A DNA stretch of 60,842 nt, counting the filler. It is 6 parts of 6 records of this genome, joined end to end, with 100 filler letters (N's around TTAATTAATTAA, not from the genome) between each part and the next. Parts side by side here need not be neighbours in the genome. Positions count along the whole stretch, not along the records: positions 24,298 to 33,859 come from SRR31156797_249; 5 more parts are not named here. One strand, written 5' to 3'. This document shows positions 17,877-54,679 of this stretch, piece by piece. Within the stretch, counting starts at the first letter, position 1; each line of letters begins with the position of its first letter. Made by a program: the position numbers and the translations under genes. The notes beneath the pieces were generated by a model. It was not told the DNA's origin and made no database searches. It saw only the letters and a list, made by a program, of their open reading frames with translations.

Positions 17877-17976
17877 NNNNNNNNNNNNNNNNNNNNNNNN
17901 NNNNNNNNNNNNNNNNNNNNTTAATTAATTAANNNNNNNNNNNNNNNNNNNNNNNNNNNNNNNNNNNNNNNNNNNN
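17877..17976. other. Artificial contig spacer
   Basis: N44-TTAATTAATTAA-N44, which puts stops in all six frames. Confidence 0.99.
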
Positions 17977-24197: not shown

Positions 24198-24297
24198 NNN
24201 NNNNNNNNNNNNNNNNNNNNNNNNNNNNNNNNNNNNNNNNNTTAATTAATTAANNNNNNNNNNNNNNNNNNNNNNNNNNNNNNNNNNNNNNNNNNNN
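24198..24297. other. Artificial contig spacer
   Basis: N44-TTAATTAATTAA-N44. Confidence 0.99.
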
Positions 24298-25313
24298 CGT
24301 TCAAACTGGCCGAATTGATTACCCTGGCGAAACAGATCATGCAGGACCGTCAATCCCTGCACCCAGATCCCAAAACAAAAGAAAGCTTGAAATACAGCGG
24401 CGGTGAGGCTGTTCACTGCCCGAGTTCGGCGATGAAAAAAATCTATCGGGCCATAGAAAAAATCGCTCCAACCGATGCCACGGTCCTTATCGACGGCGAA
24501 ACCGGAGTGGGCAAAGATGTCCTGGCCGGCCAGATCCATCGAGCCAGCGCCCGAAACAAGGCGCCTTTGATTGTCCTCGATTGCGGCTTGCTCAACCACA
24601 ACCTGGCGGACAGTGAACTCTACGGGCACCGCAAGGGTGCGTTTTCAGGTGCCGATGAAAAAAAAATCGGGCTTGTCGAAAAAAGTGATCGGGGCACCCT
24701 TTTTTTGGACGAAATCGGAAACATTGATCTCGATCTGCAGAAGAAATTTTTACGTTTTCTCGAAACCGGACGATTTCGTAGGGTTGGCGAAACCGAAGAA
24801 GTACAAGTGGACACCCGAATTATCCTTGCCACCAACGTCAACCTTCACAACGCCTTGGAAAAAGGCCGGTTGCGCGAGGATTTGTTCTATCGGATGAATT
24901 GTGTCTCCCTGAACATCCCTCCCTTGCGAGAACGACCGGAGGACATTCCTCTGCTCGTCGCCCATATGATCACCAAATACAGTGGAAACGAAAGAGAGGT
25001 GTCACAAGAGGCTCTTAATATACTCGCTCGGTATCATTGGCCCGGCAACATCCGTGAACTGAAATCGGCCATTACCAAAGCATTGATTTTTGCCGAAGAG
25101 AATATCATCACCGCCGATGACCTTCCCCGCCATCTGTCGGCGAAACGGAAAGCGACTGTTCGACGGCCTAAAACCCTGGAAGAGATGGAGAAAGATCACA
25201 TCATTGCCGTCTTGGCGGAGACCGGTGGCAATCAATCCAAGGCTGCCGAAATTTTAGGGATCAATCGGAAGACCCTTTACAAAAAAATCCACAAATTTAA
25301 AATTTTCTCCTGA
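24298..25313 (+). CDS. Sigma54-dependent response regulator (5'-truncated)
   Basis: The frame is open from the contig edge with (P)FKLAEL, the end of a receiver domain; GETGVGKD, GAFSGA, WPGNIREL and a Fis HTH follow. Confidence 0.92.
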
Positions 25314-25618
25314 CTGTCAGGGCCTTGGATGAATACCGAAGGTTCGATTGGAGATGAGAGCCTTTTCTGTGGCAGGGTGTCCCTTTTGGCCCCATTCATC
25401 GATATTTATCAGAAAAATATAAAAAACAGTCGGTTATATTATTTTTGGTAAGGTTTTTCGTTTTTTCCTACCTCAAATCTCACTCCCAATTGGTATTGCA
25501 TCTCCCTTGTCCGTCCTGTTCTCCAACCATCTTCGAAACTCATAATTAGGCCTAACGAATTAGATTCGTTGCTAATACAAGAGATTAAAATTCAGTTTGA
25601 TCATGAGATCGCATGTAT

Positions 25619-25634
25619 CGGTACGGTATTTGCT
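25619..25634 (+). promoter_or_regulatory. Putative sigma54 -24/-12 promoter
   Basis: CGGTACGGTATTTGCT has GG-N10-GC spacing, is close to the TGGCACG-N4-TTGCW consensus and lies between a sigma54 activator and the ADH gene. Confidence 0.65.
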
Positions 25635-25808
25635 GAGTCAGTTGAAATGAGGTGGTTTCCTGCTTTGCCGTAATCCGTCCCACCCAACGATGAAGCGGCA
25701 ATGTTTTCGCGCCGATGGCGAACAACACCCAATTGGAAGTGAAGCTTTTCCCTCAAACCAGCAAAGGACCTGAAAAGGAGGTGATACACAATCCTTGACC
25801 TCTTCTAA

Positions 25809-25848
25809 TGAACCTGTAGGCTTTCTCAGTTACATGTCTGCAGGTTCA
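25809..25848 (+). other. Stem-loop in the long 5' leader of the ADH gene
   Basis: TGAACCTGTAGGC/GTCTGCAGGTTCA forms 13 bp including two G-U pairs. Confidence 0.45.
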
Positions 25849-25964
25849 AGATGGCCGGCAGTGGAGCCCGCTCACTCGTCCGAGTTGTTTATCAACCTTT
25901 TTTGGTAAAGAACATTACTGCGAGTCGGGATTGTACAATCATCAAGGAGAAAAGGAGTTGTTTC

Positions 25965-27197
25965 ATGGGACATTTTGCAGACACCCAGCGTAGTATTTCA
26001 AATGAAAGAGTCGAATACCCCCTAAAGATGATGCATGCCTATCCAAAAGCGATCGTCGGTTGGGGGGCCCATACCATGGTGGGGCAGGAAGCCAAGAATT
26101 TGGGCATGAACAATGCGTTCATTGTCACCACGGGCTTAAAAGGGACCGGGATTGTAGAAGAAATCCAGGGGGTACTTAAACATGCCGGTGTCGAATCCAG
26201 TGTTTACGACAATGTAACGGGAAATCCCAAAGACCACGAAGTCATGGATGGTTATAAACAACTTTCCGCTGGCAACTTTGACGGGTTTATCAGTCTCGGT
26301 GGTGGCAGTTCGACGGACTGCTGCAAGGCCATAAAGCTTGTTCATGGTCATGACGGCCAGGACGTCAGAACATTTGAAGGCGCGTTCAAGGCAACCCAAC
26401 CCAACAAACTCCCCCATATAGCGGTTAATACAACATCCGGCACCGCATCGGAAGTCTCCTGTTTCTCCATTATCAATCATACGGATGAGATGTACAAAAT
26501 GGCTTTGTTTGATCCCAACTGCACGCCAAGCCTTGCCTTTAATGATCCGGTCCTCCATCAGTGCATGAACCAGGATATTGCCGCCTATACTGGGATGGAC
26601 GCCCTGACTCATGCGGTCGAAGCAATCGCTTCACGTTTGCTTGTCCAATCCGCCTACGGACAAGGCCTGTGGGCCATCGGCGAGATTTTTACTAATTTAC
26701 GGCAATCATCCGCCAACCGGAACAATGATAAGGCCATCGAACAAATGGTATGGGCCCAAATGGCGGCCGGTTACAGTTTCAACAGTGCCGGACTGGGAAT
26801 TGTTCATTCTATGGCCCATGTGTTGGGTGGACGCTACGATGCGCCCCATGGTTTATGTAATGCGATTGGTCTTGTTGATGTTTGCCGGTACAACCTGGCT
26901 GCCTGCCCGGAACGCTTCAAGATGATGGCTAAAGCGGCCGGTCTCGATACAATAGGCATGTCGGATTTCAAAGCAGGAGAAAAATTCGTTAATGCAGTAG
27001 AAGAACTTCGCTGCGAACTGGGCATTCGGAAGAACTTCAAGGATCTCGGGATGCAAACGGAAGATCTGGACGTCTGCGCAAAAGGTGTGCTAAACGATAT
27101 TTGTACCGAAGGAAACCCTCAGGATGTGAGCTTTGAGGACGCCAAAAAGATGTTCAGCTGTTGTATGGGGGAAGAAGTGGACTTCGGCAGCCGATAG
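25965..27197 (+). CDS. Group III (Fe-type) alcohol dehydrogenase, Mno/Mdo nicotinoprotein-like
   Basis: AAGGAG RBS before ATG 25965; GGGSSTD, TTSGTASE, DALTH, FNSAGLGIVHSMAH and HGLCNAI; N-terminal YPLKMMHAYPKAIVGWGAH and NPKDHEVMD resemble methanol:NDMA oxidoreductases. Confidence 0.85.
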   Translation: MGHFADTQRSISNERVEYPLKMMHAYPKAIVGWGAHTMVGQEAKNLGMNNAFIVTTGLKGTGIVEEIQGVLKHAGVESSVYDNVTGNPKDHEVMDGYKQLSAGNFDGFISLGGGSSTDCCKAIKLVHGHDGQDVRTFEGAFKATQPNKLPHIAVNTTSGTASEVSCFSIINHTDEMYKMALFDPNCTPSLAFNDPVLHQCMNQDIAAYTGMDALTHAVEAIASRLLVQSAYGQGLWAIGEIFTNLRQSSANRNNDKAIEQMVWAQMAAGYSFNSAGLGIVHSMAHVLGGRYDAPHGLCNAIGLVDVCRYNLAACPERFKMMAKAAGLDTIGMSDFKAGEKFVNAVEELRCELGIRKNFKDLGMQTEDLDVCAKGVLNDICTEGNPQDVSFEDAKKMFSCCMGEEVDFGSR

Positions 27198-27255
27198 TAT
27201 TGAATCCGGTATGGATGACGGCTTGCCCCCATTGGATTCGAGCAAATGGCTTCTC

Positions 27256-27281
27256 CCCTCCCCCTCCTCTGAGGGGGAGGG
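27256..27281 (+). terminator. Strong hairpin between ADH and mftA (partial terminator or mRNA stabiliser)
   Basis: Perfect 11-bp CCCTCCCCCTC/GAGGGGGAGGG stem with only a weak U-tract. Confidence 0.5.
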
Positions 27282-27341
27282 AAACTTTGTAAAAACCAAC
27301 CAGGTTATACTACCAATCATCCAAACGAGGAGGAAATGTTC

Positions 27342-27476
27342 GTGGAAGAAAAAATTTTTGAAGAAAGCTCAAAAGAAGTACGGGAAGAGATGGATCGGAC
27401 ACAAGAACAGCCCATGATCATTGAAGAATTCGAAATTGAAGAACTGAGTGTGGATGGTATTTGCGGCGTTTATTAA
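27342..27476 (+). CDS. mftA: Mycofactocin precursor peptide (variant type)
   Basis: Manual translation (M)EEKIFEESSKEVREEMDRTQEQPMIIEEFEIEELSVDGICGVY*. GAGGAGG RBS lies 8 nt before GTG 27342 (alternative ATG at 27336). The C-terminus matches the IDGMCGVY signature and the gene sits directly before mftB-mftC. Confidence 0.93.
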   Translation: MEEKIFEESSKEVREEMDRTQEQPMIIEEFEIEELSVDGICGVY

Positions 27477-27563
27477 CCGATTGGGAATTGATGGGGCCGG
27501 GCATATCGGCGCTTCGCTCCCTGCCTGATTGAGGTAAAACGGTAGTCGATGGAGAAATCAACC

Positions 27564-27845
27564 ATGCGTACCGATTCCATGTACCGGCTCTGCAAAGGTG
27601 TTCAAGTGAGATCAGAAAAGTTCGGTCTTCTCTTTTACAATTACGCAGGTCCGAAAATCTATTTTGTACCCTCCAAAAACCTTGTCGACGATAGCTTTTT
27701 TTCCGGTAGCCAATCGGTATCCGATCTGATTCGTGCGGTCGAAAAGAGGAAAGGATGGTCGAAAAAACATGCCGTGAAGCAGCTGTGGTCCTTTTTTCGG
27801 CAATTGGAAACGAAGGGACTTGTCTATGAACAATCCATATGTTGA
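27564..27845 (+). CDS. mftB: Mycofactocin chaperone (RRE/PqqD-like)
   Basis: YRLCKGVQVRSEKFGLLFYNY...KIYFV matches the MftB pattern (L-x-P/K-x-V-x-x-R-x-E-x-FG-x-L-x-Y); located between precursor and radical SAM gene; start placed at ATG 27564 after GGAG. Confidence 0.88.
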   Translation: MRTDSMYRLCKGVQVRSEKFGLLFYNYAGPKIYFVPSKNLVDDSFFSGSQSVSDLIRAVEKRKGWSKKHAVKQLWSFFRQLETKGLVYEQSIC

Positions 27846-28857
27846 ACAAGGTCTTTCCGCTCCGGTAAACGTTACCTGGGAGATTACCTACGCGTGCAAT
27901 TTGTCGTGCATTCACTGCCTTTCCGATTCGGGAAAGAAAAGACCAGGCGAACTCACTACCGATGAATGCTTTAAGGTAATTGACGACCTGGCCCGCAACA
28001 AGGTCTTTCAGTTCAATATTGGCGGTGGCGAGCCCTTTATGCGGCCCGATTTTCTGGATCTCATGGACGATGCCCATGAAAAAGGCATGGTAACCTGCAT
28101 CAGCACCAACGGAACCCGCATCGATGCCGAAACGGCGAGAAGGTTGAGTCATCCCCTGGTGTATATTCAGGTGAGCCTGGATGGGGCCACCCCCGAGTCC
28201 AACGATGCCATCCGGGGTGCCGGTAGTTTTCATAGGGTAATCCAGGCGCTGGAATACTTAAAACGAGAATCCATCGAAGTCAGCATTAACACCGTTTTGA
28301 CCCGTCGTAGCATTGACGAACTGGACAAGTTGAGCGACTTGGCGGCGGATTTCGGCGCAAAACTTCGTGTTTCCCGCTTCAGGCCATCCGGACGGGGGAA
28401 AGACGCGTGGTCGGAACTCAATGTCACCGAGCAACAGATGCTTGATTTTTCCGCCTGGCTCGGGAATCATTTGAAGGTATCTACGGGCGATTCTTTCTTT
28501 TCGGTTTCCACGGAGGATCGCCGTTCTTTGGGTTTGAATATGTGCGGAGCCTGCAAACTGACCTGCTGCCTGTCTCCCCAAGGTCGTGTCTATCCATGCG
28601 CCTTTTTACAGGAAGAGGAGTTTTACGCGGGACAGCTTCCAAAAGAATCTTTCGCCGATATTTGGCGTAATTCCGAAGTTTTCCGCTCCTTTCGAGGTTT
28701 GGAAATCAAGTCCTGCGAATCCTGCCACCGATTTGACCTCTGCCATGGCGGATGTCCGGCCATTGCCTATCACACCCAACGAAAACTGGGGGTGGCGGAT
28801 CCTGGCTGTCTGGAAAATTGTGTTCGGGTGAAGAAGGCGGCTGTCGTAAATGCCTGA
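27826..28857 (+). CDS. mftC: Mycofactocin radical SAM/SPASM maturase
   Basis: GLSAPVNVTWEITYACNLSCIHCLSDSG, NIGGGEP, QVSLDGA, SRFRPSGRG and SPASM cysteines CGA...C...YPC...CESC...CHGGC...DPGC. Confidence 0.92.
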   Translation: MNNPYVEQGLSAPVNVTWEITYACNLSCIHCLSDSGKKRPGELTTDECFKVIDDLARNKVFQFNIGGGEPFMRPDFLDLMDDAHEKGMVTCISTNGTRIDAETARRLSHPLVYIQVSLDGATPESNDAIRGAGSFHRVIQALEYLKRESIEVSINTVLTRRSIDELDKLSDLAADFGAKLRVSRFRPSGRGKDAWSELNVTEQQMLDFSAWLGNHLKVSTGDSFFSVSTEDRRSLGLNMCGACKLTCCLSPQGRVYPCAFLQEEEFYAGQLPKESFADIWRNSEVFRSFRGLEIKSCESCHRFDLCHGGCPAIAYHTQRKLGVADPGCLENCVRVKKAAVVNA

Positions 28858-28885: not shown

Positions 28886-30628
28886 ATGGACAAAATTTTA
28901 CGAATAGCCATGGGGGCCGACGGCGGCCCCTGTGTTTCAGAAGAACCGTTAGGAGAGTACGCGGGAATTGGCGGCCGTGCATTGACTTCGATGATCATTG
29001 GCAAAGAGGTGCCGCCCAGTTGCCATCCACTTGGTGAAGACAACAAATTGGTGATCGCTCCGGGTTTGCTGAGTGGTTCTGCGGCCGCCATGAGCGGCCG
29101 AATTTCGGTCGGCTGCAAAAGCCCCCTGACTGGCGGTATCAAGGAAGCCAATTCCGGTGGCCAAGGTGCACAGGTCATGGCGCGGTTGGGCTATGCTGCC
29201 ATAGTTTTTGAAGGTAAACCTAGTGGCGACACCCTATACAAGGTGTTCATCAACAAGGACGGTGCGGCCGTTGAGCCCGACAACAGCCTGAAAATGCTCG
29301 GAAATTATGATCTTGTAGATAAATTGCGCGCCCAATACGGAGAAAAGGTCGCCTGCATTTCAATCGGCATGGCAGGTGAAATGAAATTGGGAGCGGCATC
29401 GATCGCCTTTACCGACATGGAACAGCGCCCCACCCGCCATGCAGGCCGGGGTGGAGTCGGCGCCGTGATGGGTTCCAAGGGCGTTAAAGCCATCGTACTG
29501 GACGATGCAGAAATGAAAATGCGCCCTCCCAAAGACCCCGAGAAATTTAAAGCCGCCAACAAGACGTTTGTCGCCGGTCTCAAGAAGCATCCGGTTACGG
29601 GAGAAGGACTTCCCGCCTTTGGAACCAACGTGTTGACCAATGTTTTGAGCGAGGCCGGTGGTTACCCCACCCGCAACTTCAGTAGCGGACAGTTCGAAGG
29701 CGCGGGTAATATCAGCGGCGAGACGCAAGCTGCGCTGGAAAACGAGCGCGGTGGTGAAGGATCTGCCACGCATGGCTGTCACCGGGGCTGCATCATCCGT
29801 TGCTCTGGAACTTTTTATGACAAGAACGGTAACTTCCTGACGAAGCAGCCCGAGTACGAGACCGTTTGGGCTCACGGCGGCAACTGCGGCATCGACGATC
29901 TGGATGCCATCGCCCAGATGGATCGGATGGACGATGACTTCGGGCTGGACACCATTGAAATGGGAGCTACCATTGCAGTTGCCATGGAGGCCGGACTGGC
30001 CGAATTCGGCGATGCCCAGGGGGCCATAAAGCTTCTCAAGGAGGTTGGCGAAGGAACACCCCTCGGTCGCGTGCTGGGCAGCGGTGCGGCGATCACCGGC
30101 AAGGTTTTCGGCGTAGAGCGTGTCCCGGTCGTAAAAGGTCAAGCGATGCCGGCCTACGATCCCAGAACCGTCCAGGGCATCGGCGTGACATATGCCACCA
30201 CCACCATGGGCGCAGACCATACCGCCGGATATGCCGTGGCCACCAACATTTTAGGGGTTGGGGGCAGCGTGGACCCACTGAAACCGGAAGGGCAGATCGA
30301 ACTCTCCAGGAACCTTCAGATCGCAACGGCAGCCATCGATTCTACGGGTATGTGCCTATTCATTGCTTTTGCGGTTTTAGATCAGCCGGAAACCTTTCAG
30401 GCACTGATTGACCTGTTGAATTCATTTTACGGACTGGAATTGACCGCTGACGATGTGACGGCTTTGGGCCAAACCATCCTGAAAACGGAAAGAGAATTCA
30501 ACGCCAAGGCCGGGTTTACGTCTGAACACGATCGGCTGCCTGATTACTTTCACAAGGAGAAATTACCTCCCCACAATATAACCTTTATGGTAAAGGATGA
30601 AGAACTGGACAAGGTGTTCAACTGGTAG
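28886..30628 (+). CDS. aor: Tungsten/molybdopterin aldehyde:ferredoxin oxidoreductase
   Basis: KSPLTGGIKEANSGG, RHAGRGGVGAVMGSKGVKAI, CHRGCIIRC, PEYET, GLDTIE and GADHT. Confidence 0.95.
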   Translation: MDKILRIAMGADGGPCVSEEPLGEYAGIGGRALTSMIIGKEVPPSCHPLGEDNKLVIAPGLLSGSAAAMSGRISVGCKSPLTGGIKEANSGGQGAQVMARLGYAAIVFEGKPSGDTLYKVFINKDGAAVEPDNSLKMLGNYDLVDKLRAQYGEKVACISIGMAGEMKLGAASIAFTDMEQRPTRHAGRGGVGAVMGSKGVKAIVLDDAEMKMRPPKDPEKFKAANKTFVAGLKKHPVTGEGLPAFGTNVLTNVLSEAGGYPTRNFSSGQFEGAGNISGETQAALENERGGEGSATHGCHRGCIIRCSGTFYDKNGNFLTKQPEYETVWAHGGNCGIDDLDAIAQMDRMDDDFGLDTIEMGATIAVAMEAGLAEFGDAQGAIKLLKEVGEGTPLGRVLGSGAAITGKVFGVERVPVVKGQAMPAYDPRTVQGIGVTYATTTMGADHTAGYAVATNILGVGGSVDPLKPEGQIELSRNLQIATAAIDSTGMCLFIAFAVLDQPETFQALIDLLNSFYGLELTADDVTALGQTILKTEREFNAKAGFTSEHDRLPDYFHKEKLPPHNITFMVKDEELDKVFNW

Positions 30629-30795: not shown

Positions 30796-31389
30796 ATGCC
30801 CATTAAAATAAAGCTTCTATTGAAAAAAAATAAGGTCTCGCCGATGTATCCCCTGCTTCAGCAAGGATTCCAGGTCACTGCAAAGGTCGGCTGCGACATT
30901 CAGAGCCTTATGTGCGACCAATTAGGAATGATGCCCGATTACTTATCCGATCGAATCAGTACAATTTTTCTTAATGGCAAGCCTGTGGATGACGTTGCAT
31001 CGGCAATTGTGAACGACGGTGCCACGCTGGCGCTGTCAGCTGCCATGCCCGGGTTGGTGGGCGCAACGTTTCGAAAGGCCGGATGCCTGGCATCTTTTAG
31101 GGGGTCGATTACCTACCGGGAAGCATCGGATTATCCTGCAGTCCGCCAGGAAGGTACCGTCACCCTGAAACTGTTTAATTTGCTTATTAATGAAATCGGG
31201 CCGCTTTTCTTGGAGTATGGCATATGGATCCAGGGCCGCCATTTACTCAAGACAATTGAACTCGACAACGGAAAAAACATTAAAAAAGTTGAAAAGAATG
31301 GCCGGGAAATAGATAAAAGCAGGCTATCCGCTCAGGACTGGATTGCTGCCGATGCCCGAACGTTCCTCCAGGTCATTTTTGAGCCTTAA
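30796..31389 (+). CDS. Hypothetical protein with MoaD/ThiS-like (beta-grasp) segment
   Basis: IFLNGKPVDD...VNDGATLALSAAMPG resembles the VNG...L-x-DGD-x-V-x-x-x-PP-x-x-GG end of sulfur carriers; AAGGAAG RBS. Confidence 0.6.
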   Translation: MPIKIKLLLKKNKVSPMYPLLQQGFQVTAKVGCDIQSLMCDQLGMMPDYLSDRISTIFLNGKPVDDVASAIVNDGATLALSAAMPGLVGATFRKAGCLASFRGSITYREASDYPAVRQEGTVTLKLFNLLINEIGPLFLEYGIWIQGRHLLKTIELDNGKNIKKVEKNGREIDKSRLSAQDWIAADARTFLQVIFEP

Positions 31390-31454: not shown

Positions 31455-32615
31455 ATGATCAAAGCCGAAACAATTCAATTAAATGATGAATTCTCATTAG
31501 AATCCGGAAGACGTTTAGGTGAGAATCTAATTAAAAAATTAGGTGTCGTGCCAGATGCCTGCTGGCTATTCTGCTCTCCTGATAAAAACCTGGACGCCTT
31601 GGTCAAAGGTGTTCACGAGTCGATCGACATACGAAACCTCATCGGTTGTTCAACCGCCGGAGAAATCTCAACCGATGGTTTTAGTATCGGATCCGCCGTT
31701 TTGGGTGGCATCGTTTCCGATCAGATCGATTTCGAAACAGTTGTCTGCCATGATATCAGCAGAGACAACGAAAGCGCAGGCCGAAAAATTGCATCGGCCT
31801 TTACCGATTCTGTCCGTTATGTGCAACTATTTTCCGATGGTATTACCGGAAATGGCAGCGCTATTTTAAGAGGTATGGCTTCTGTCTTCCCAGAACACAT
31901 ACCCGTATCGGGTGGCACTTCGGGCGATGCCGGAATGTTTTTGAAAACATGGCAATTTTTAGGAGGCCGGGTTTTTACCGATTCGGCAGTGGCCATCGGT
32001 TTCAGCGGTGATTTTAAGCTGGGGACCGGCGTGTGGAGTGGCTGGTCACCCATCGGGTTGCCCAAAAAGGTGACACGCTCGGAAGGCAATGTTCTGTATG
32101 AACTCAACGGCGAACTGGCCCTGAACGTTTTCGAGCGCTTTTTGGGTAAACATGCCAGAAAGCTCCCGGCCGTTGGTGTAGAGTACCCGTTGGGACTGAT
32201 TGGACAGGTTGAAGATGATGACAAAGAGAATCTTCTGCTACGTGCGACCATGTCAGTAGACCATAATCAAGGATCGATCCGCTTCGCCGGCGAAATCCCC
32301 GAAGGTGCCATGGTTTATCTGACTTGCGGGGATCGAACATCTCTGTTGGATGGCACCCAAAAGGCAGTTCGATTGGCCATTGAAGATCTGGGAGCGCCTA
32401 TCCAGCCCTCTGTTGCATTTTTCTATTCCTGTATGGCCCGCAAAATTCTTTTGGGATTGCGTACCAAGGAGGAAATTGAGCAGGTTCGCTCCCAGTTTAG
32501 CTCGGCTGTCCCAATCCTTGGGTTCTACACCTATGGTGAATATAGCCGTATTAAGGGCAACGGCCCAAGCTTGTTACACAACGAAACCGCAACGTTATCC
32601 TTGATCGGGGTATGA
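31455..32615 (+). CDS. FIST (NosP-like) sensory domain protein
   Basis: IGCSTAGEI, SGGTSGD, SGWSPIG, YSCMARK and GFYTYGEY...LHNET. Confidence 0.9.
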   Translation: MIKAETIQLNDEFSLESGRRLGENLIKKLGVVPDACWLFCSPDKNLDALVKGVHESIDIRNLIGCSTAGEISTDGFSIGSAVLGGIVSDQIDFETVVCHDISRDNESAGRKIASAFTDSVRYVQLFSDGITGNGSAILRGMASVFPEHIPVSGGTSGDAGMFLKTWQFLGGRVFTDSAVAIGFSGDFKLGTGVWSGWSPIGLPKKVTRSEGNVLYELNGELALNVFERFLGKHARKLPAVGVEYPLGLIGQVEDDDKENLLLRATMSVDHNQGSIRFAGEIPEGAMVYLTCGDRTSLLDGTQKAVRLAIEDLGAPIQPSVAFFYSCMARKILLGLRTKEEIEQVRSQFSSAVPILGFYTYGEYSRIKGNGPSLLHNETATLSLIGV

Positions 32616-33859: not shown

Positions 33860-33959
33860 NNNNNNNNNNNNNNNNNNNNNNNNNNNNNNNNNNNNNNNNN
33901 NNNTTAATTAATTAANNNNNNNNNNNNNNNNNNNNNNNNNNNNNNNNNNNNNNNNNNNN
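33860..33959. other. Artificial contig spacer
   Basis: N44-TTAATTAATTAA-N44. Confidence 0.99.
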
Positions 33960-44767: not shown

Positions 44768-44867
44768 NNNNNNNNNNNNNNNNNNNNNNNNNNNNNNNNN
44801 NNNNNNNNNNNTTAATTAATTAANNNNNNNNNNNNNNNNNNNNNNNNNNNNNNNNNNNNNNNNNNNN
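44768..44867. other. Artificial contig spacer
   Basis: N44-TTAATTAATTAA-N44. Confidence 0.99.
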
Positions 44868-50285: not shown

Positions 50286-50385
50286 NNNNNNNNNNNNNNN
50301 NNNNNNNNNNNNNNNNNNNNNNNNNNNNNTTAATTAATTAANNNNNNNNNNNNNNNNNNNNNNNNNNNNNNNNNNNNNNNNNNNN
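50286..50385. other. Artificial contig spacer
   Basis: N44-TTAATTAATTAA-N44. Confidence 0.99.
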
Positions 50386-50411: not shown

Positions 50412-52928
50412 ATGAGCGCAGTTCCAAGTCAGGCGAAATTGGTGATCATCGGGGCCGGCATCGTGGGCAACTCCGTGGCCTGGCATCTGGCCAACAAGGG
50501 TTGGCGAAGTATGGTCTTGGTTGATAAAGGTCCGCTCCCCAACCCGGGGGGATCCACCGGGCATGCGTCCAACTTTATTTTTCCGGTGGATCATGCCAAG
50601 ACAATGACTCAACTCACCAAGGACAGTATGGAACAATATAAGGAAATGGATTTGTTCCGGCAATGCGGAGGCATAGAACTGGCTCAGACCGATGAGCGCT
50701 TTATGGAACTCAAACGTCGCATGGGTTCAGCCAAAAATTGGGGGGTCGACGCGGAACTGCTTGATGCGGCCGGTGTCAAGAAGTTGTTTCCCTGGGTTGA
50801 TGAGACCCGTATACTGGGCGGTTTTTACACCCCTTCGGTCGGCGTGGTCGATTCGTTGCGCGCCGGTTCCGTGATGCGCGAAAAGGCCGTGGAAGCCGGA
50901 GCTTTACAGGTCTTCCCAAACACTGAAGTAGTAGGTTTGGAAGTGAAAAACGGCTGCATTCATGCGGTCAAGACCAACCGGGGCGTGATAGAAACCGAGT
51001 ATGCGGTTATTGCCTGCGGCGTCTGGAGTCCCCGTATCGCTCAAATTGCCGGCGCGGCAATTCCGCTATACCCTGTGGTGCATCAGATGATCGACGCCGG
51101 CCCCATTGCACAGTTCAAAGACGCCCGGGGAGAGATTGAATACCCTATATTAAGAGACATGAGCGCTTTGATGTACGAGCGCCAGGCCGCCCAGAACCTA
51201 GAAATCGGCTCTTATGCTCATCGACCCATTTTGCATGATCCAAACGACATTCCTTCTCTTGAACAAGCCAAGCTGTCCCCCACGGAAATGCCCTTTACAA
51301 ACGACGACTTTGAACCCCAGTTGGCGGACGCCCTTGCCCTGCTGCCGGAAATGCTGGACGATGATTCCGTTGAAATACAATACGCCGTAAACGGACTGAT
51401 ATCACTTACGCCGGATGGGGCGCCGATCATTGGAGAAACGCCGGAAGTGAAGAACCTTTGGTCGGCGGCCGCGGTCTGGATCAAGGAAGGTCCGGGCGTC
51501 GGTAGAATGATAGCGGAATGGATGACCGATACAGCCCCGGAAATAGACCCAGGTGAACTGGATATAGCCAGGTTCTATCCCCATGCCCGTACCAAATCGC
51601 ACATTATCGCTCGCGTTAACGAGGGCTTCCCCCAAATTTACGGCGTGGTCCATCCTGCTGAACAATACAGCTCATCCCGCAATGTGAGGCTTAGCCCCTT
51701 TTTTGAACGTGAAAAGGAATTTGGCGCGGTCTTCCATGAAACAGCGGGCTGGGAGCGGCCGCATTGGTATGAGTCGAATAAAATCCTTCTGGATCAGTAC
51801 GGCGACAAGATCAGTCAACGATCCCATGAATGGGACGCAAGGTGGTGGTCGCCCATCATCAACGCCGAACATTTGGCTATGCGTGAAAGGGCCGCCATGT
51901 TCGATCTTACTGCTTTCGCCGTCTTCGACATTTGCGGCAGGGGCGCTTTGGATTACATACAAAATATCGCAGTCAATCAGATGGACGTCCCTGCGGGTAG
52001 AGCCGTATATACGCTTTTCCTAAATACATTCGGAGGTATCAAGTCCGACCTTACTATCATGCGCCTTAGCGAGGACGTTTTTCGTGTAGTAACCGGCGGC
52101 GGCCATGGCGGGATTGACAAGGCTTGGCTCAAGTCTTTCCTGCCCGCCGACGGATCGGTTCAACTACATGACCGGACCTCCTCCCTCTGCACCTTGGGCC
52201 TCTGGGGACCCAATGCCCGCAAGATCCTGGAAAAGGTTTCTGGCAATGATGTTTCAAATGAGGCATTTCCCTTTGCTACTGCCCAGGAAATTTCAATACG
52301 CGAGATTCCGGTTTGGGCCCTACGTTTATCCTACGTGGGTGAGTTGGGCTGGGAACTATACGCTTCGTTCGAACAAGGACGGAAGCTATGGGATTATTTG
52401 TGGGAGGCCGGCGGTGAATTCGGCCTGATCCCGGCCGGTATCGGCGTCTACGGAACCACAGCCCGACTGGAAAAAAGCTATCGATTATACGGTTGCGATA
52501 TGGATGCCGATTACTCGGCGGTGGAGGCCGGGTTGGCCAGGCCTAAGGTCAAATCACAGGAGTTTATCGGCAAGGAAGCTTATCTCCGAGCCGGCGAAGA
52601 AGAACCGGCCGCGCTGCTGTGCAGCTTGACCGTGGACGATCATACATCATCCACCGGCGAAAAACGTTATATGCTGGGCCATGAACCTGTGCTCACCGAA
52701 AACGGCAATGTGATTGAAGATCGTTTGGGGAGGCGTTCCTACGTCTGCAGCGCCGGGGCCGGACCTGCCATCGGCCGTCATATTCTAACTGCCTACCTAC
52801 CGCCGGAATTGGCCAAGGTCGGTGTGAAACTTAATGTGGAATATTTTATGGAACATTATCCGGCGACTGTACGGGCTGTGGGAGCCGTTCCGCTTTTCGA
52901 TCCGGAAAATGAGCGCCTGAAAGCCTGA
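50412..52928 (+). CDS. Dimethylglycine/sarcosine dehydrogenase-like flavoprotein (DAO + GcvT domains)
   Basis: IIGAGIVG, GGSTGHA, TPDGAPIIG, GWERP, RLSYVGELGWELY and RLEKSY; 838 aa. Confidence 0.9.
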   Translation: MSAVPSQAKLVIIGAGIVGNSVAWHLANKGWRSMVLVDKGPLPNPGGSTGHASNFIFPVDHAKTMTQLTKDSMEQYKEMDLFRQCGGIELAQTDERFMELKRRMGSAKNWGVDAELLDAAGVKKLFPWVDETRILGGFYTPSVGVVDSLRAGSVMREKAVEAGALQVFPNTEVVGLEVKNGCIHAVKTNRGVIETEYAVIACGVWSPRIAQIAGAAIPLYPVVHQMIDAGPIAQFKDARGEIEYPILRDMSALMYERQAAQNLEIGSYAHRPILHDPNDIPSLEQAKLSPTEMPFTNDDFEPQLADALALLPEMLDDDSVEIQYAVNGLISLTPDGAPIIGETPEVKNLWSAAAVWIKEGPGVGRMIAEWMTDTAPEIDPGELDIARFYPHARTKSHIIARVNEGFPQIYGVVHPAEQYSSSRNVRLSPFFEREKEFGAVFHETAGWERPHWYESNKILLDQYGDKISQRSHEWDARWWSPIINAEHLAMRERAAMFDLTAFAVFDICGRGALDYIQNIAVNQMDVPAGRAVYTLFLNTFGGIKSDLTIMRLSEDVFRVVTGGGHGGIDKAWLKSFLPADGSVQLHDRTSSLCTLGLWGPNARKILEKVSGNDVSNEAFPFATAQEISIREIPVWALRLSYVGELGWELYASFEQGRKLWDYLWEAGGEFGLIPAGIGVYGTTARLEKSYRLYGCDMDADYSAVEAGLARPKVKSQEFIGKEAYLRAGEEEPAALLCSLTVDDHTSSTGEKRYMLGHEPVLTENGNVIEDRLGRRSYVCSAGAGPAIGRHILTAYLPPELAKVGVKLNVEYFMEHYPATVRAVGAVPLFDPENERLKA

Positions 52929-52943
52929 CCAGGAGACGAGGGA

Positions 52944-53708
52944 ATGAACATTTTGGTCTGTGTAAAACGAGTGGCGGATGTAGGGGCCAAATTCGACCTT
53001 ACCGAAGACGGGCGGGCCATTGTCACCAGGAATCTGGGGTTCACCATTAGCCCTCACGAAGAATGCGCGGTAGAGGCGGCTATTCAATTTATGGAAAATA
53101 ATGAGGGGAAAACCACCGTGTTGGCTCTGGGGCCGGAAGCGGTTGAAGAACAGCTTCGAGACGCCCTGGCCAGAGGCGTCGATGAGGGCGTGCTGTTGGA
53201 AACCGACGGAGAAGAATGGGATCCGGGGCAAACGGCCAGGGCCATTGCGGAATTTGTTAAAACCAGGACTGAATCCGGAGATGGTTTCGACCTGTTGCTG
53301 ATGGGCGCCGAGGCGGCTGACACCGGTGATTCCCAGGTTTCCGTCCGCACTGCGCGGGAACTGGGTCTGGCCTGCCTGACCGGCGTCAAGAGCCTGGAAA
53401 TAGCCGGAAGTCAGGTAACAGCCCGGAAGGAAATCGATTCGGGTTGGGAAATATACCAATCAAGCCTACCCATCGTCATATCAGTCAAGGAAGGAATAAA
53501 TCTGCCGCGTTATCCAAGTTTGCGCGGAACCATGAAGGCCAAAAAGAAAAAGATCGAAAAGTTGCTTCCGGATAAAACCGGCGCCGGCTTGATCATGAAA
53601 AGCCTGCAGTATCCGCCTGACAACGGCAAACAAGTCAAGATGCTAGGCCAGGGGCCGACGGCGGCTCCAAAAGTTTTAGAACTTCTGAAATCACTGGAGT
53701 TGTTATAG
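52944..53708 (+). CDS. etfB: Electron transfer flavoprotein beta subunit
   Basis: MNILVCVKRV, AVEAA and INLPRYPSLRGTMKAKKK. Confidence 0.93.
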   Translation: MNILVCVKRVADVGAKFDLTEDGRAIVTRNLGFTISPHEECAVEAAIQFMENNEGKTTVLALGPEAVEEQLRDALARGVDEGVLLETDGEEWDPGQTARAIAEFVKTRTESGDGFDLLLMGAEAADTGDSQVSVRTARELGLACLTGVKSLEIAGSQVTARKEIDSGWEIYQSSLPIVISVKEGINLPRYPSLRGTMKAKKKKIEKLLPDKTGAGLIMKSLQYPPDNGKQVKMLGQGPTAAPKVLELLKSLELL

Positions 53709-53710
53709 CT

Positions 53711-54679
53711 ATGATACTTTTCCTGATAGACCATGATCGCGGCCGTCTCTCGGAAGCCTCCCTGCAGACGGCAACCATCGCCTGGCGAACCGCACAAGAT
53801 GCGGGCCTGGACTTGGCAGCCGTGTTGATTGGCCATCAGGCCCGGCACTTGGCTGAAGATCTAAAGCCCTATGGCGTTTCCAGAGTAATTCTGGCCGCCC
53901 ACGAAAAACTGATCGATTACGCCCCTGAAGCCTGGGCCGCCGTAATGACGGGGATAATGGAAGACCAAAATCCCGCAATCATATTAGCGCCGTCCACGGA
54001 CCGGGGTAATGAAGTCATGGCGCATGTGGCAGCCTGCACAGGCTTGCCAATGGCCGCAAATTGCATAGAGATCCACCCGGGCGACCCGTTTAAGGTAATC
54101 AGGCTCAGATGGGGCGGAAGCCTTTTGGAAGAAGCCGAATTAATCGGATCTCCTCGGTTGCTGACCTCGGCTATACATATCGTTGAGCCGCAGGAAGCCC
54201 CGGCGCCAGGTGAAGCCTCATTGGAAGAATTCATGCCGCATTTGAACGAGCAGGACTTCCGGACCGCAATCGTCGGCCGGGAAGAGAAGGCGATTGAAGG
54301 CGTAAACCTTAAGACAGCCCGTGTGGTTATCGGCGGCGGCCGCGGAGTGGGAAGTGCGGAAGGATATGCGGTGCTCGAAGAACTGGCCGAAGAACTGGGG
54401 GCGGCCGTGGGCGGCAGCCGGGTAGCTACCAACAATGGTTGGCGCCCTCACACCGACCAGATCGGTTTGACCGGCAGCCGTATCGCGCCTGAATTGTATA
54501 TCGCCTGCGGCATCTCAGGGGCAATTCAACACATGGTTGGTTGCAAGGGCGCCAAAAACATCCTGGTTATAAATAATGATCCGGAAGCAGCCTTTTTCGC
54601 CAAAGCAGATTACGGCATAGTCGGAGACCTGTTCGAAGTCATCCCGGCTATCACTGAAGAGTTAAAAAAAACAAGATAG
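53711..54679 (+). CDS. etfA: Electron transfer flavoprotein alpha subunit
   Basis: GGGRG, GGSR and QIGLTG...YIACGISGAIQH...DYGIVGD. Confidence 0.95.
   Translation: MILFLIDHDRGRLSEASLQTATIAWRTAQDAGLDLAAVLIGHQARHLAEDLKPYGVSRVILAAHEKLIDYAPEAWAAVMTGIMEDQNPAIILAPSTDRGNEVMAHVAACTGLPMAANCIEIHPGDPFKVIRLRWGGSLLEEAELIGSPRLLTSAIHIVEPQEAPAPGEASLEEFMPHLNEQDFRTAIVGREEKAIEGVNLKTARVVIGGGRGVGSAEGYAVLEELAEELGAAVGGSRVATNNGWRPHTDQIGLTGSRIAPELYIACGISGAIQHMVGCKGAKNILVINNDPEAAFFAKADYGIVGDLFEVIPAITEELKKTR

Follow-up and report, generated by a model that had tools for sequence, protein, structure and literature searches.

A variant-type mycofactocin precursor gene, mftA, ahead of mftB and mftC on a 9.6-kb contig

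The model of the mycofactocin pathway rests on aerobic mycobacteria. In the passages of PMC11778925 and PMC10885120 cited here, MftB binds the precursor peptide MftA in these organisms and MftC decarboxylates and cyclises its C-terminal Val-Tyr; MftE sets free the resulting 3-amino-5-((4-hydroxyphenyl)methyl)-4,4-dimethyl-2-pyrrolidinone (AHDP) core, whose deamination by MftD gives the redox-active keto-amide, and MftF glycosylates. The gene described here, a variant-type mftA, was found in a stretch of 60,842 nucleotides of DNA, the window, which consists of six contigs joined end to end. It lies at 27342..27476 on the + strand, within the segment 24298-33859 (9.6 kb, GC content about 0.49), which is its only true genomic context and would derive from a Desulfobacterales-like anaerobe.

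Among the closest known precursors are those of the canonical mftABCDEF(G) clusters of Mycobacteriales, Streptomyces and Thermomicrobium (TIGR03969). The window peptide is, like them, short and acidic, ends in D-G-x-C-G-V-Y directly before the stop codon and is encoded upstream of mftB and mftC, but its last residues are VDGICGVY instead of IDGMCGVY and the block preceding them is EEFEIEEL. The surroundings differ as well, since the window locus has no mftD, mftE, mftG, mftM or TetR-type mftR nearby, would be regulated by a sigma-54 activator, has an iron-containing alcohol dehydrogenase (Fe-ADH) as the partner enzyme instead of a short-chain or zinc-containing dehydrogenase, and would belong to an anaerobic host. 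With the Fe-ADH clusters of Geobacter uraniireducens, Desulfotomaculum acetoxidans and Pelotomaculum, as they appear in the part of Haft 2011 (PMC3023750) drawn on here, it shares a PF00465 Fe-ADH beside the radical SAM gene and an NAD-site signature, which reads TSNPKDYEVH there and TGNPKDHEVM in the window; an aldehyde:ferredoxin oxidoreductase neighbour is not mentioned for them there. More distantly, PqqA/PqqD/PqqE also turn a ribosomal peptide into a redox cofactor of alcohol dehydrogenases by means of a SPASM radical SAM enzyme and a small chaperone, with different core residues and chemistry. On the evidence given below, it is very probable that 27342-27476 is a genuine, translated variant-type mftA in the row Fe-ADH, mftA, mftB, mftC and aldehyde:ferredoxin oxidoreductase (AOR), and that it acts by the mechanism proposed in this work.

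The precursor gene and its curated class

The open reading frame (ORF) lies where the preliminary description of this DNA had placed it, at 27336..27476 on the + strand, and the strong GAGGAGG ribosome-binding site claimed for it is present at 27327..27333. Read from the ATG at 27336, it encodes 46 amino acids (MFVEEKIFEESSKEVREEMDRTQEQPMIIEEFEIEELSVDGICGVY) followed by TAA (27474-27476); read from the GTG at 27342, it encodes 44 amino acids, with EEFEIEELSVDGICGVY before the stop codon in both cases. The Shine-Dalgarno sequence is separated from the GTG by 8 nt and from the ATG by 2 nt. The GTG is kept in the five most closely related loci, L001-L004 and L046, with a GGAGGA-type Shine-Dalgarno sequence 7-9 nt upstream, and none of them has an in-frame ATG before it. 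Since both the GTG and its Shine-Dalgarno sequence are conserved and the relatives lack a preceding in-frame ATG, the product is likely the 44-aa peptide. This peptide is acidic (15 D/E against 4 K/R, calculated pI 4.05). As had been stated, the terminal Val-Tyr is intact, the product terminating in VDGICGVY with Gly-Val-Tyr directly before TAA. When all six frames of the window were searched for G-x-C-G-V/I-Y-stop, mftA alone was found.

The family assignment was made with curated hidden Markov models (HMMs). The NCBIfam model NF040489, "variant-type mycofactocin precursor", matches the 44-aa peptide with 43.0 bits against a cut-off of 30 (E 3.9e-11), covering profile positions 1-23 of 23, and the 46-aa form scores 42.9 bits. 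The canonical model TIGR03969 is also passed, at 29.2 bits against a cut-off of 25, which is below the score of the variant model. In a collection of 5.8 billion proteins, no protein identical to the peptide was found, the best match having 89% identity, and 38 relatives were retrieved, among which 14 carry the JGI name "mycofactocin precursor" and one the NCBI name "variant-type mycofactocin precursor". When the window peptide was aligned with 36 of these 38 relatives (37 sequences; P0004 and P0006 were omitted as near-copies of P0003), the last 17 residues proved nearly invariant, while the leaders drop to about 50% identity.

The same division is found in the codons. Six loci were compared pairwise and the differences summed over the 15 pairs. 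For the last 17 codons of mftA, the synonymous differences number 114 and the non-synonymous ones 17, against 34 and 252, respectively, for the 26 leader codons. Such a pattern indicates a translated gene with a strongly selected C-terminus, and the last 17 codons are under purifying selection.

The relation to canonical precursors was examined on annotated reference genes. Their mftA products end in IDGMCGVY in 7 of 9 plasmid loci, as the preliminary description had assumed for the canonical form, and in IDGICGVY in two haloarchaeal loci. Over the last 12 residues, the window peptide differs from the references mainly by three conservative changes (L for V, V for I and I for M). The two models separate the classes: all 11 VDGICGVY peptides tested pass NF040489, whereas all four reference peptides tested (Mycolicibacterium, Thermomicrobium and Tsukamurella with IDGMCGVY, Haloterrigena with IDGICGVY) fail it and pass TIGR03969. 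Compared with members of NF040489 such as P0014, from an NCBI Desulfobacteraceae metagenome-assembled genome (MAG), the window peptide has the same 44-aa length, acidic leader and ending; only the N-terminal leader differs, the peptide being 68% identical to P0014 and 89% identical to its best match.

The EEFEIEELSV region, described earlier as a diverged recognition region, is not peculiar to this genome but a conserved signature of NF040489, and the novelty of the gene had been overrated, because the class is already curated and its relatives are named by both NCBI and JGI. The mftA of the window is a genuine gene and a member of an already curated and populated class; what it reveals is an ordinary annotation gap and not a new kind of system, and its contribution is one more sequence of a kind already known. 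Biologically, the single gene adds little, since NF040489 already defines the class. For annotation, in turn, it is a textbook example of how length cut-offs for ORFs make a small, functional gene disappear: in its absence mftB and mftC look orphaned, and with it the alcohol-oxidation module of Fe-ADH, mycofactocin genes and AOR in an anaerobe is completed.

mftB, mftC and the related loci

The gene immediately precedes mftB and mftC, which share its strand; mftB begins 73 nt and mftC 344-350 nt after the mftA stop. The peptide chaperone gene mftB (27549..27845, +) encodes 98 aa, or 93 aa from an alternative start at 27564; it scores 47.4 bits against a cut-off of 33 with TIGR03967 and contains the MftB hallmark EKFGLLFY. 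The radical SAM/SPASM maturase gene mftC (27826..28857, +) overlaps the end of mftB; the longest ORF begins at TTG 27820 and the conserved start is ATG 27826. Its product reaches 385.1 bits with TIGR03962 (cut-off 265), has the Pfam domains Radical_SAM and SPASM, and shows the CNLSCIHC (CX3CX2C) motif in translation. With TIGR02109 it scores 131 bits, far below the cut-off of 381. The proposal of an MftA precursor beside MftB and MftC was thus borne out by curated HMM scores above cut-off, by gene order and by the codon pattern.

From residue 3 onward, the window MftC is 89% identical to that of L001, the closest relative of the window locus (84-90% protein identity). In the PDB, the nearest structure to the window MftC is SkfB, followed by PqqE (6c8v); no MftC structure and no MftB-like chain were found there, the best match to MftB (E 0.0039) being an unrelated glyoxalase. 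A prediction of the MftB-MftA complex gave a score of 0.02 against a mark of 0.34, and as it was run with neither alignments nor controls, it carries no weight either way. In a quick MftC tree of 32 rows, from which the short rows L011, L017, L035, L044 and L046 were left out, the window groups with L001, L003 and L004 (SH-aLRT 99) beside the reference MftCs; its deep branches are long and unsafe, and no conclusion is drawn from it.

A scan of species-representative genomes with the patterns EEFEIEEL and VDGICGVY gave 47 loci, all from MAGs. They belong to Desulfobacterales, Desulfomonilaceae, Syntrophorhabdales, Syntrophobacteraceae and many Actinomycetota (Thermoleophilia, Gaiellales), together with one Spirochaetes and two Acidobacteriota. 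All 47 end in VDGICGVY, which is partly the result of selection by that pattern. Of the 46 loci having at least 500 nt downstream, 40 show an MftB-type motif (E-x-FGLLFY) after the peptide gene, so the expectation that the small ORF would be conserved upstream of mftB homologues was confirmed; the exceptions are L002, L009, L018, L026, L033 and L047, and L043 is too short to judge. In the closest relatives, mftA is always paired with mftB and mftC.

Two architectures were distinguished. Type I, that of the window, consists of a sigma-54 activator, Fe-ADH, mftA (EE[FY][ED]IEELSVDGICGVY), mftB and mftC; this order is kept in L001, L003, L004 and L046, and L002 and L009 share its upstream part. 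MftF comes directly next in L003, L004 and L046, whereas the window and L001 lack it there. Type II consists of a zinc-containing alcohol dehydrogenase, mftA (LEEIEVEDL[AT]VDGICGVY), mftB, mftC, a FadH/OYE (old yellow enzyme) gene named "mycofactocin system FadH/OYE oxidoreductase 2", the alpha subunit of an electron transfer flavoprotein (ETF), FixC-like and FixX-like genes, ETF-beta and MftF.

Some of the VDGICGVY peptides have no MftB and MftC after them (L009:10001-10135, L026:5003-5083, L047:7139-7186 and L033:2725-2790). L009 has, in this order, Fe-ADH, the peptide, another kind of SPASM/twitch radical SAM gene (fam 23, also present in L006, L015 and L022), two OYE2 genes and ETF-alpha; in L026 and L047, two OYE2 genes come directly after the peptide. 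The peptides of L009, L026, L047 and L033 may be extra precursor copies or may pair with a different maturase.

By analogy with the mycobacterial system, MftB would bind the conserved acidic block of the peptide and present the C-terminal Val-Tyr to MftC, which would oxidatively decarboxylate the tyrosine and cross-link it to the valine, giving the AHDP lactam core. The genomic context further suggests that the product would be an electron acceptor through which the adjacent Fe-ADH regenerates its tightly bound nicotinamide cofactor during anaerobic alcohol oxidation, and that the adjacent AOR would convert the aldehyde formed to the acid.

Later pathway steps and maturation

The genes of the later steps were searched for in the window and in the 47 related loci with flanks of up to 10 kb. 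By tblastn, reference sequences of MftD (three), MftE (two), MftG (one) and MftM (one) gave no match in the 47 loci or the whole window. Profiles run unfiltered on 8,396 six-frame segments of this DNA (833 kb) gave best E values of 0.58 for MftD and 0.42 for MftE, and a Pfam scan of 53 window ORFs showed neither a Creatininase nor an FMN_dh domain. As a positive control, the same profiles recovered MftE from 6 and MftD from 4 of the 9 plasmid loci used as references, including Streptomyces and Halolamina loci that had not gone into building the profiles. The MftF profile matched 34 of the 47 related loci and had no match in the window. A GT2 glycosyltransferase at 827-2482, on another contig of the window, was considered as an unlinked MftF and rejected, as it does not match TIGR03965. 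Among 30 loci with a called MftF, 24 extend at least 900 nt beyond it and show no MftE there, although the position of MftE in Streptomyces yangpuensis is after MftF.

An MftD-less architecture is already present in reference annotation. The Streptomyces and haloarchaeal plasmid clusters L051, L052, L053, L055 and L056 have FadH/OYE 1 and 2 and ETF/Fix genes, with no MftD within 10 kb; MftE was found, by annotation or profile, in four of the five (not in L055). These clusters and the type II VDGICGVY loci have an mftABC core devoid of mftD in common with the window. They differ from it in having FadH/OYE, ETF alpha/beta and FixC/FixX-like genes and usually, MftE, none of which is on the window contig.

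Several points weigh against the interpretation of the window locus as a working variant-type mycofactocin system. The Pfam MftA model PF23709 scores the peptide at 24.6, under its gathering score of 27. The contig is just 9.6 kb long, the remaining window being other contigs of uneven GC content. MftD and MftE have no match in the window or the related loci, and MftF is absent from both the contig and L001, yet follows mftC in L003, L004 and L046; since the three are missing nearby, a complete canonical pathway is not demonstrated. Between the window MftC and the annotated MftCs in the 12 best plasmid records, identity is 43-47%, and it is homology that suggests its chemistry on a VDGICGVY substrate. 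In addition, a strong hairpin separates the Fe-ADH gene from mftA, and the operon structure is deduced from spacing and strand alone. The prediction of the same AHDP core chemistry in the preliminary description can be kept as a fair expectation for the MftC step, but not for the steps of MftE and MftD, whose genes are absent from the window and the 47 loci.

Two explanations would deny the peptide its role as a cofactor precursor. A chance open frame in the intergenic spacer might be suspected from the shortness of the ORF and from two longer ORFs that overlap it. One of these, 27133-27417 (+), encodes 94 aa and covers the Fe-ADH end and the spacer; the other, 27418-28233 (-), encodes 271 aa and is antisense to mftB and mftC. 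However, neither has a Pfam family, nor does the minus-strand ORF have an NCBIfam family, and both are probably spurious, although they could hide a small gene in length-ranked ORF lists. Against them stand the HMM match, the 38 homologues and the bias of codon differences towards synonymous ones, and because of this codon-level conservation a chance frame is excluded for practical purposes. That the peptide is instead a secreted or antimicrobial peptide made by the ribosome and modified after translation (RiPP) could be argued from the place of MftC in the SPASM peptide-maturase group, whose closest solved members to it, SkfB and PqqE, were named above. This is highly improbable, as the locus has no transporter, immunity or leader-protease gene, the conserved partners in all loci are dehydrogenases and electron-transfer proteins, and the core does not vary as it does among antimicrobial RiPPs.

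The other two explanations accept a cofactor precursor and concern the route after MftC. If the canonical steps apply, mftE, mftD and mftF would lie elsewhere in the genome and the end product would be ordinary (glycosylated) mycofactocin. The canonical enzymes could act, since the Val-Tyr core and the preceding Gly are unchanged; MftF is found in most of the related loci, and the window contig covers only a short part of the genome. In the part of Haft 2011 (PMC3023750) cited here, the radical SAM gene, the glycosyltransferase and MftB always co-occur in genomes, but the MftD and MftE families are not universal among mycofactocin genomes. Given also that no MftD or MftE was matched in 833 kb by profiles that do find them in the references, and that MftE is missing beyond MftF in those 24 loci, this route is on the unlikely side. 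Alternatively, maturation may proceed without MftE and MftD, by another peptidase and oxidase (e.g., the type II FadH/OYE) or as a modified peptide that is not released, so that product or route differs. The lack of both genes in 47 of 47 loci, the absence of MftD from 5 of the 9 reference loci, those of the OYE/ETF architecture, and the peptide class, which tracks the difference cleanly (NF040489 versus TIGR03969), speak for it. Still, absence within about 10 kb is not absence from a genome, the window clade has no OYE or ETF genes, so that no substitute enzyme can be named there, and the class has no described chemistry; we regard this route as quite possible, while on balance leaning against it. 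The more specific proposal that the VDGICGVY systems, frequent in MAGs of uncultured, anaerobic Desulfobacterota, Syntrophorhabdales and Thermoleophilia/Gaiellales, either mature through enzymes unrelated to MftE and MftD or yield a different cofactor, perhaps peptide-linked or an aglycone, seems doubtful to us. It would make the window clade the most reduced form, with mftABC wired directly to Fe-ADH and, in the window only, to a tungsten-type AOR.

Whichever route is taken, the reading of the window gene as a translated variant-type mftA is accompanied by a pattern that exposes a concrete gap in a pathway model built on mycobacteria. In the 47 anaerobic or uncultured loci, MftA, MftB, MftC and mostly MftF are present and MftD and MftE never are, within about 10 kb. 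This class-wide absence near VDGICGVY precursors is the most interesting by-product of the analysis, and it would allow for anaerobes maturing the precursor by another route, an idea to be held with some scepticism. A literature search for mycofactocin with "variant-type" or Desulfobacter* found no paper, in a search that did not cover most subscription journals; matches on missing mftD or mftE were all on mycobacteria, and no mycofactocin paper was among the matches listed for ETF/FadH-type clusters.

Neighbouring genes and the rest of the window

Every gene between 24315 and 33859 lies on the + strand. The first encodes a sigma-54-dependent activator (24315..25313, +; Sigma54_activat 206.8 bits, AAA_lid_14, HTH_8). 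The contig end at 24298 truncates its 5' part, and with a profile match that starts near position 141 the N-terminal domain is lacking. A sigma-54 activator gene is also upstream of the Fe-ADH in L001-L004 and L046. A sigma-54 promoter-like element, CGGTACGGTATTTGCT, was located at 25619..25634 (+), with GG and GC in the -24/-12 register of the sigma-54 consensus. Across the window, this consensus occurs at chance level (31 matches, 31.1 expected). Upstream of the Fe-ADH, CGG[CT]AC-N5-TTGCT is present in 6 of 7 loci (window, L001, L002, L004, L046 and L009, the last with TGGCAT) and is missing in L003, where an IS21 insertion sits. The site therefore gains its weight from its recurrence in relatives, as the window alone gives none. 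A scan of 25300-27600 for sigma-70 promoters and terminators found nothing above shuffle expectation.

The Fe-ADH gene (25965..27197, +; Pfam Fe-ADH and ADH_Fe_C) has its longest ORF from 25851 and a conserved start, M-G/A-H-F-A (M-G-H-F-A in the window), at 25965. Its product is 80-90% identical to that of the gene preceding mftA in L001-L004, L009 and L046. The NAD-site motif TGNPKD[HY]EVM is found in 7 of 7 mftA-adjacent Fe-ADHs, with H in the window, and is absent from the ErcA-like Fe-ADH paralogue of L001; the Fe-ADH beside mft genes on an M. chubuense plasmid has TPNPKDHEI. According to the portion of Haft 2011 (PMC3023750) cited here, exactly this segment is a hot spot whose sequence predicts mycofactocin linkage in Fe-ADHs of anaerobes, with TSNPKDYEVH as opposed to VPNPTITV in FucO. 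The window Fe-ADH is presumed to be a mycofactocin-dependent nicotinoprotein with an altered NAD site.

The spacer between Fe-ADH and mftA contains a GC-rich hairpin (27256..27281, +) with 11 pairs, arms CCCUCCCCCUC and GAGGGGGAGGG, a CUCU loop and no T tail. The fold of 27198-27345 has -49.9 kcal/mol (z -2.1), a stability matched by 4 of 200 shuffles. The hairpin is not called in the terminator scan, and an Rfam scan of the contig, with E up to 0.1, gave no match. The hairpin may act in transcript processing or stabilisation and thereby set how much precursor transcript there is relative to enzyme transcript.

Downstream, the AOR-family gene (28886..30628, +; AFOR_N 188.9 and AFOR_C 265.6 bits) begins 29 nt after mftC. 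It is followed by a conserved hypothetical gene for 197 aa (30796..31389, +), which belongs to no Pfam or NCBIfam family and is linked to mftA by position only; the ESM Atlas clusters nearest to its product are unnamed and mostly from Thermodesulfobacteriota. This pair after mftC is at that position in none of the 47 related loci: L001 has a kinase and a 47-aa FIST remnant there, and L031 has LarE and LarC. Next come a FIST sensor protein (31455..32615, +; Pfam FIST and FIST_C), which bears a weak resemblance to NosP (72 bits, cut-off 450), and a PAS histidine kinase (32619 onward, +), which is cut by the contig end at 33859. The FIST/kinase pair follows mftC also in L031. Upstream of the mft genes, L001:193-4031 has genes for an Fe-ADH similar to ErcA (483 bits, slightly short of the cut-off of 550), for a histidine kinase and for the sigma-54 regulator. 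Together, this set and the FIST/kinase genes of the window are reminiscent of the genes that regulate ethanol oxidation in Pseudomonas, here located beside a mycofactocin and not a pyrroloquinoline quinone system.

The six contigs of the window are joined by linkers at 17877-17976, 24198-24297, 33860-33959, 44768-44867 and 50286-50385, each of the five being N44-TTAATTAATTAA-N44. The GC content of the segments ranges from 0.32 (at 18-24 kb) to 0.54, with 0.53 at 45-51 kb, and they need not be neighbours, nor even parts of one organism. In another of them, 50412-54679 contains a gene for an 838-aa DAO/GCV_T fusion, similar to dimethylglycine or sarcosine dehydrogenase, followed by ETF beta and alpha genes, a set unrelated to mftA.

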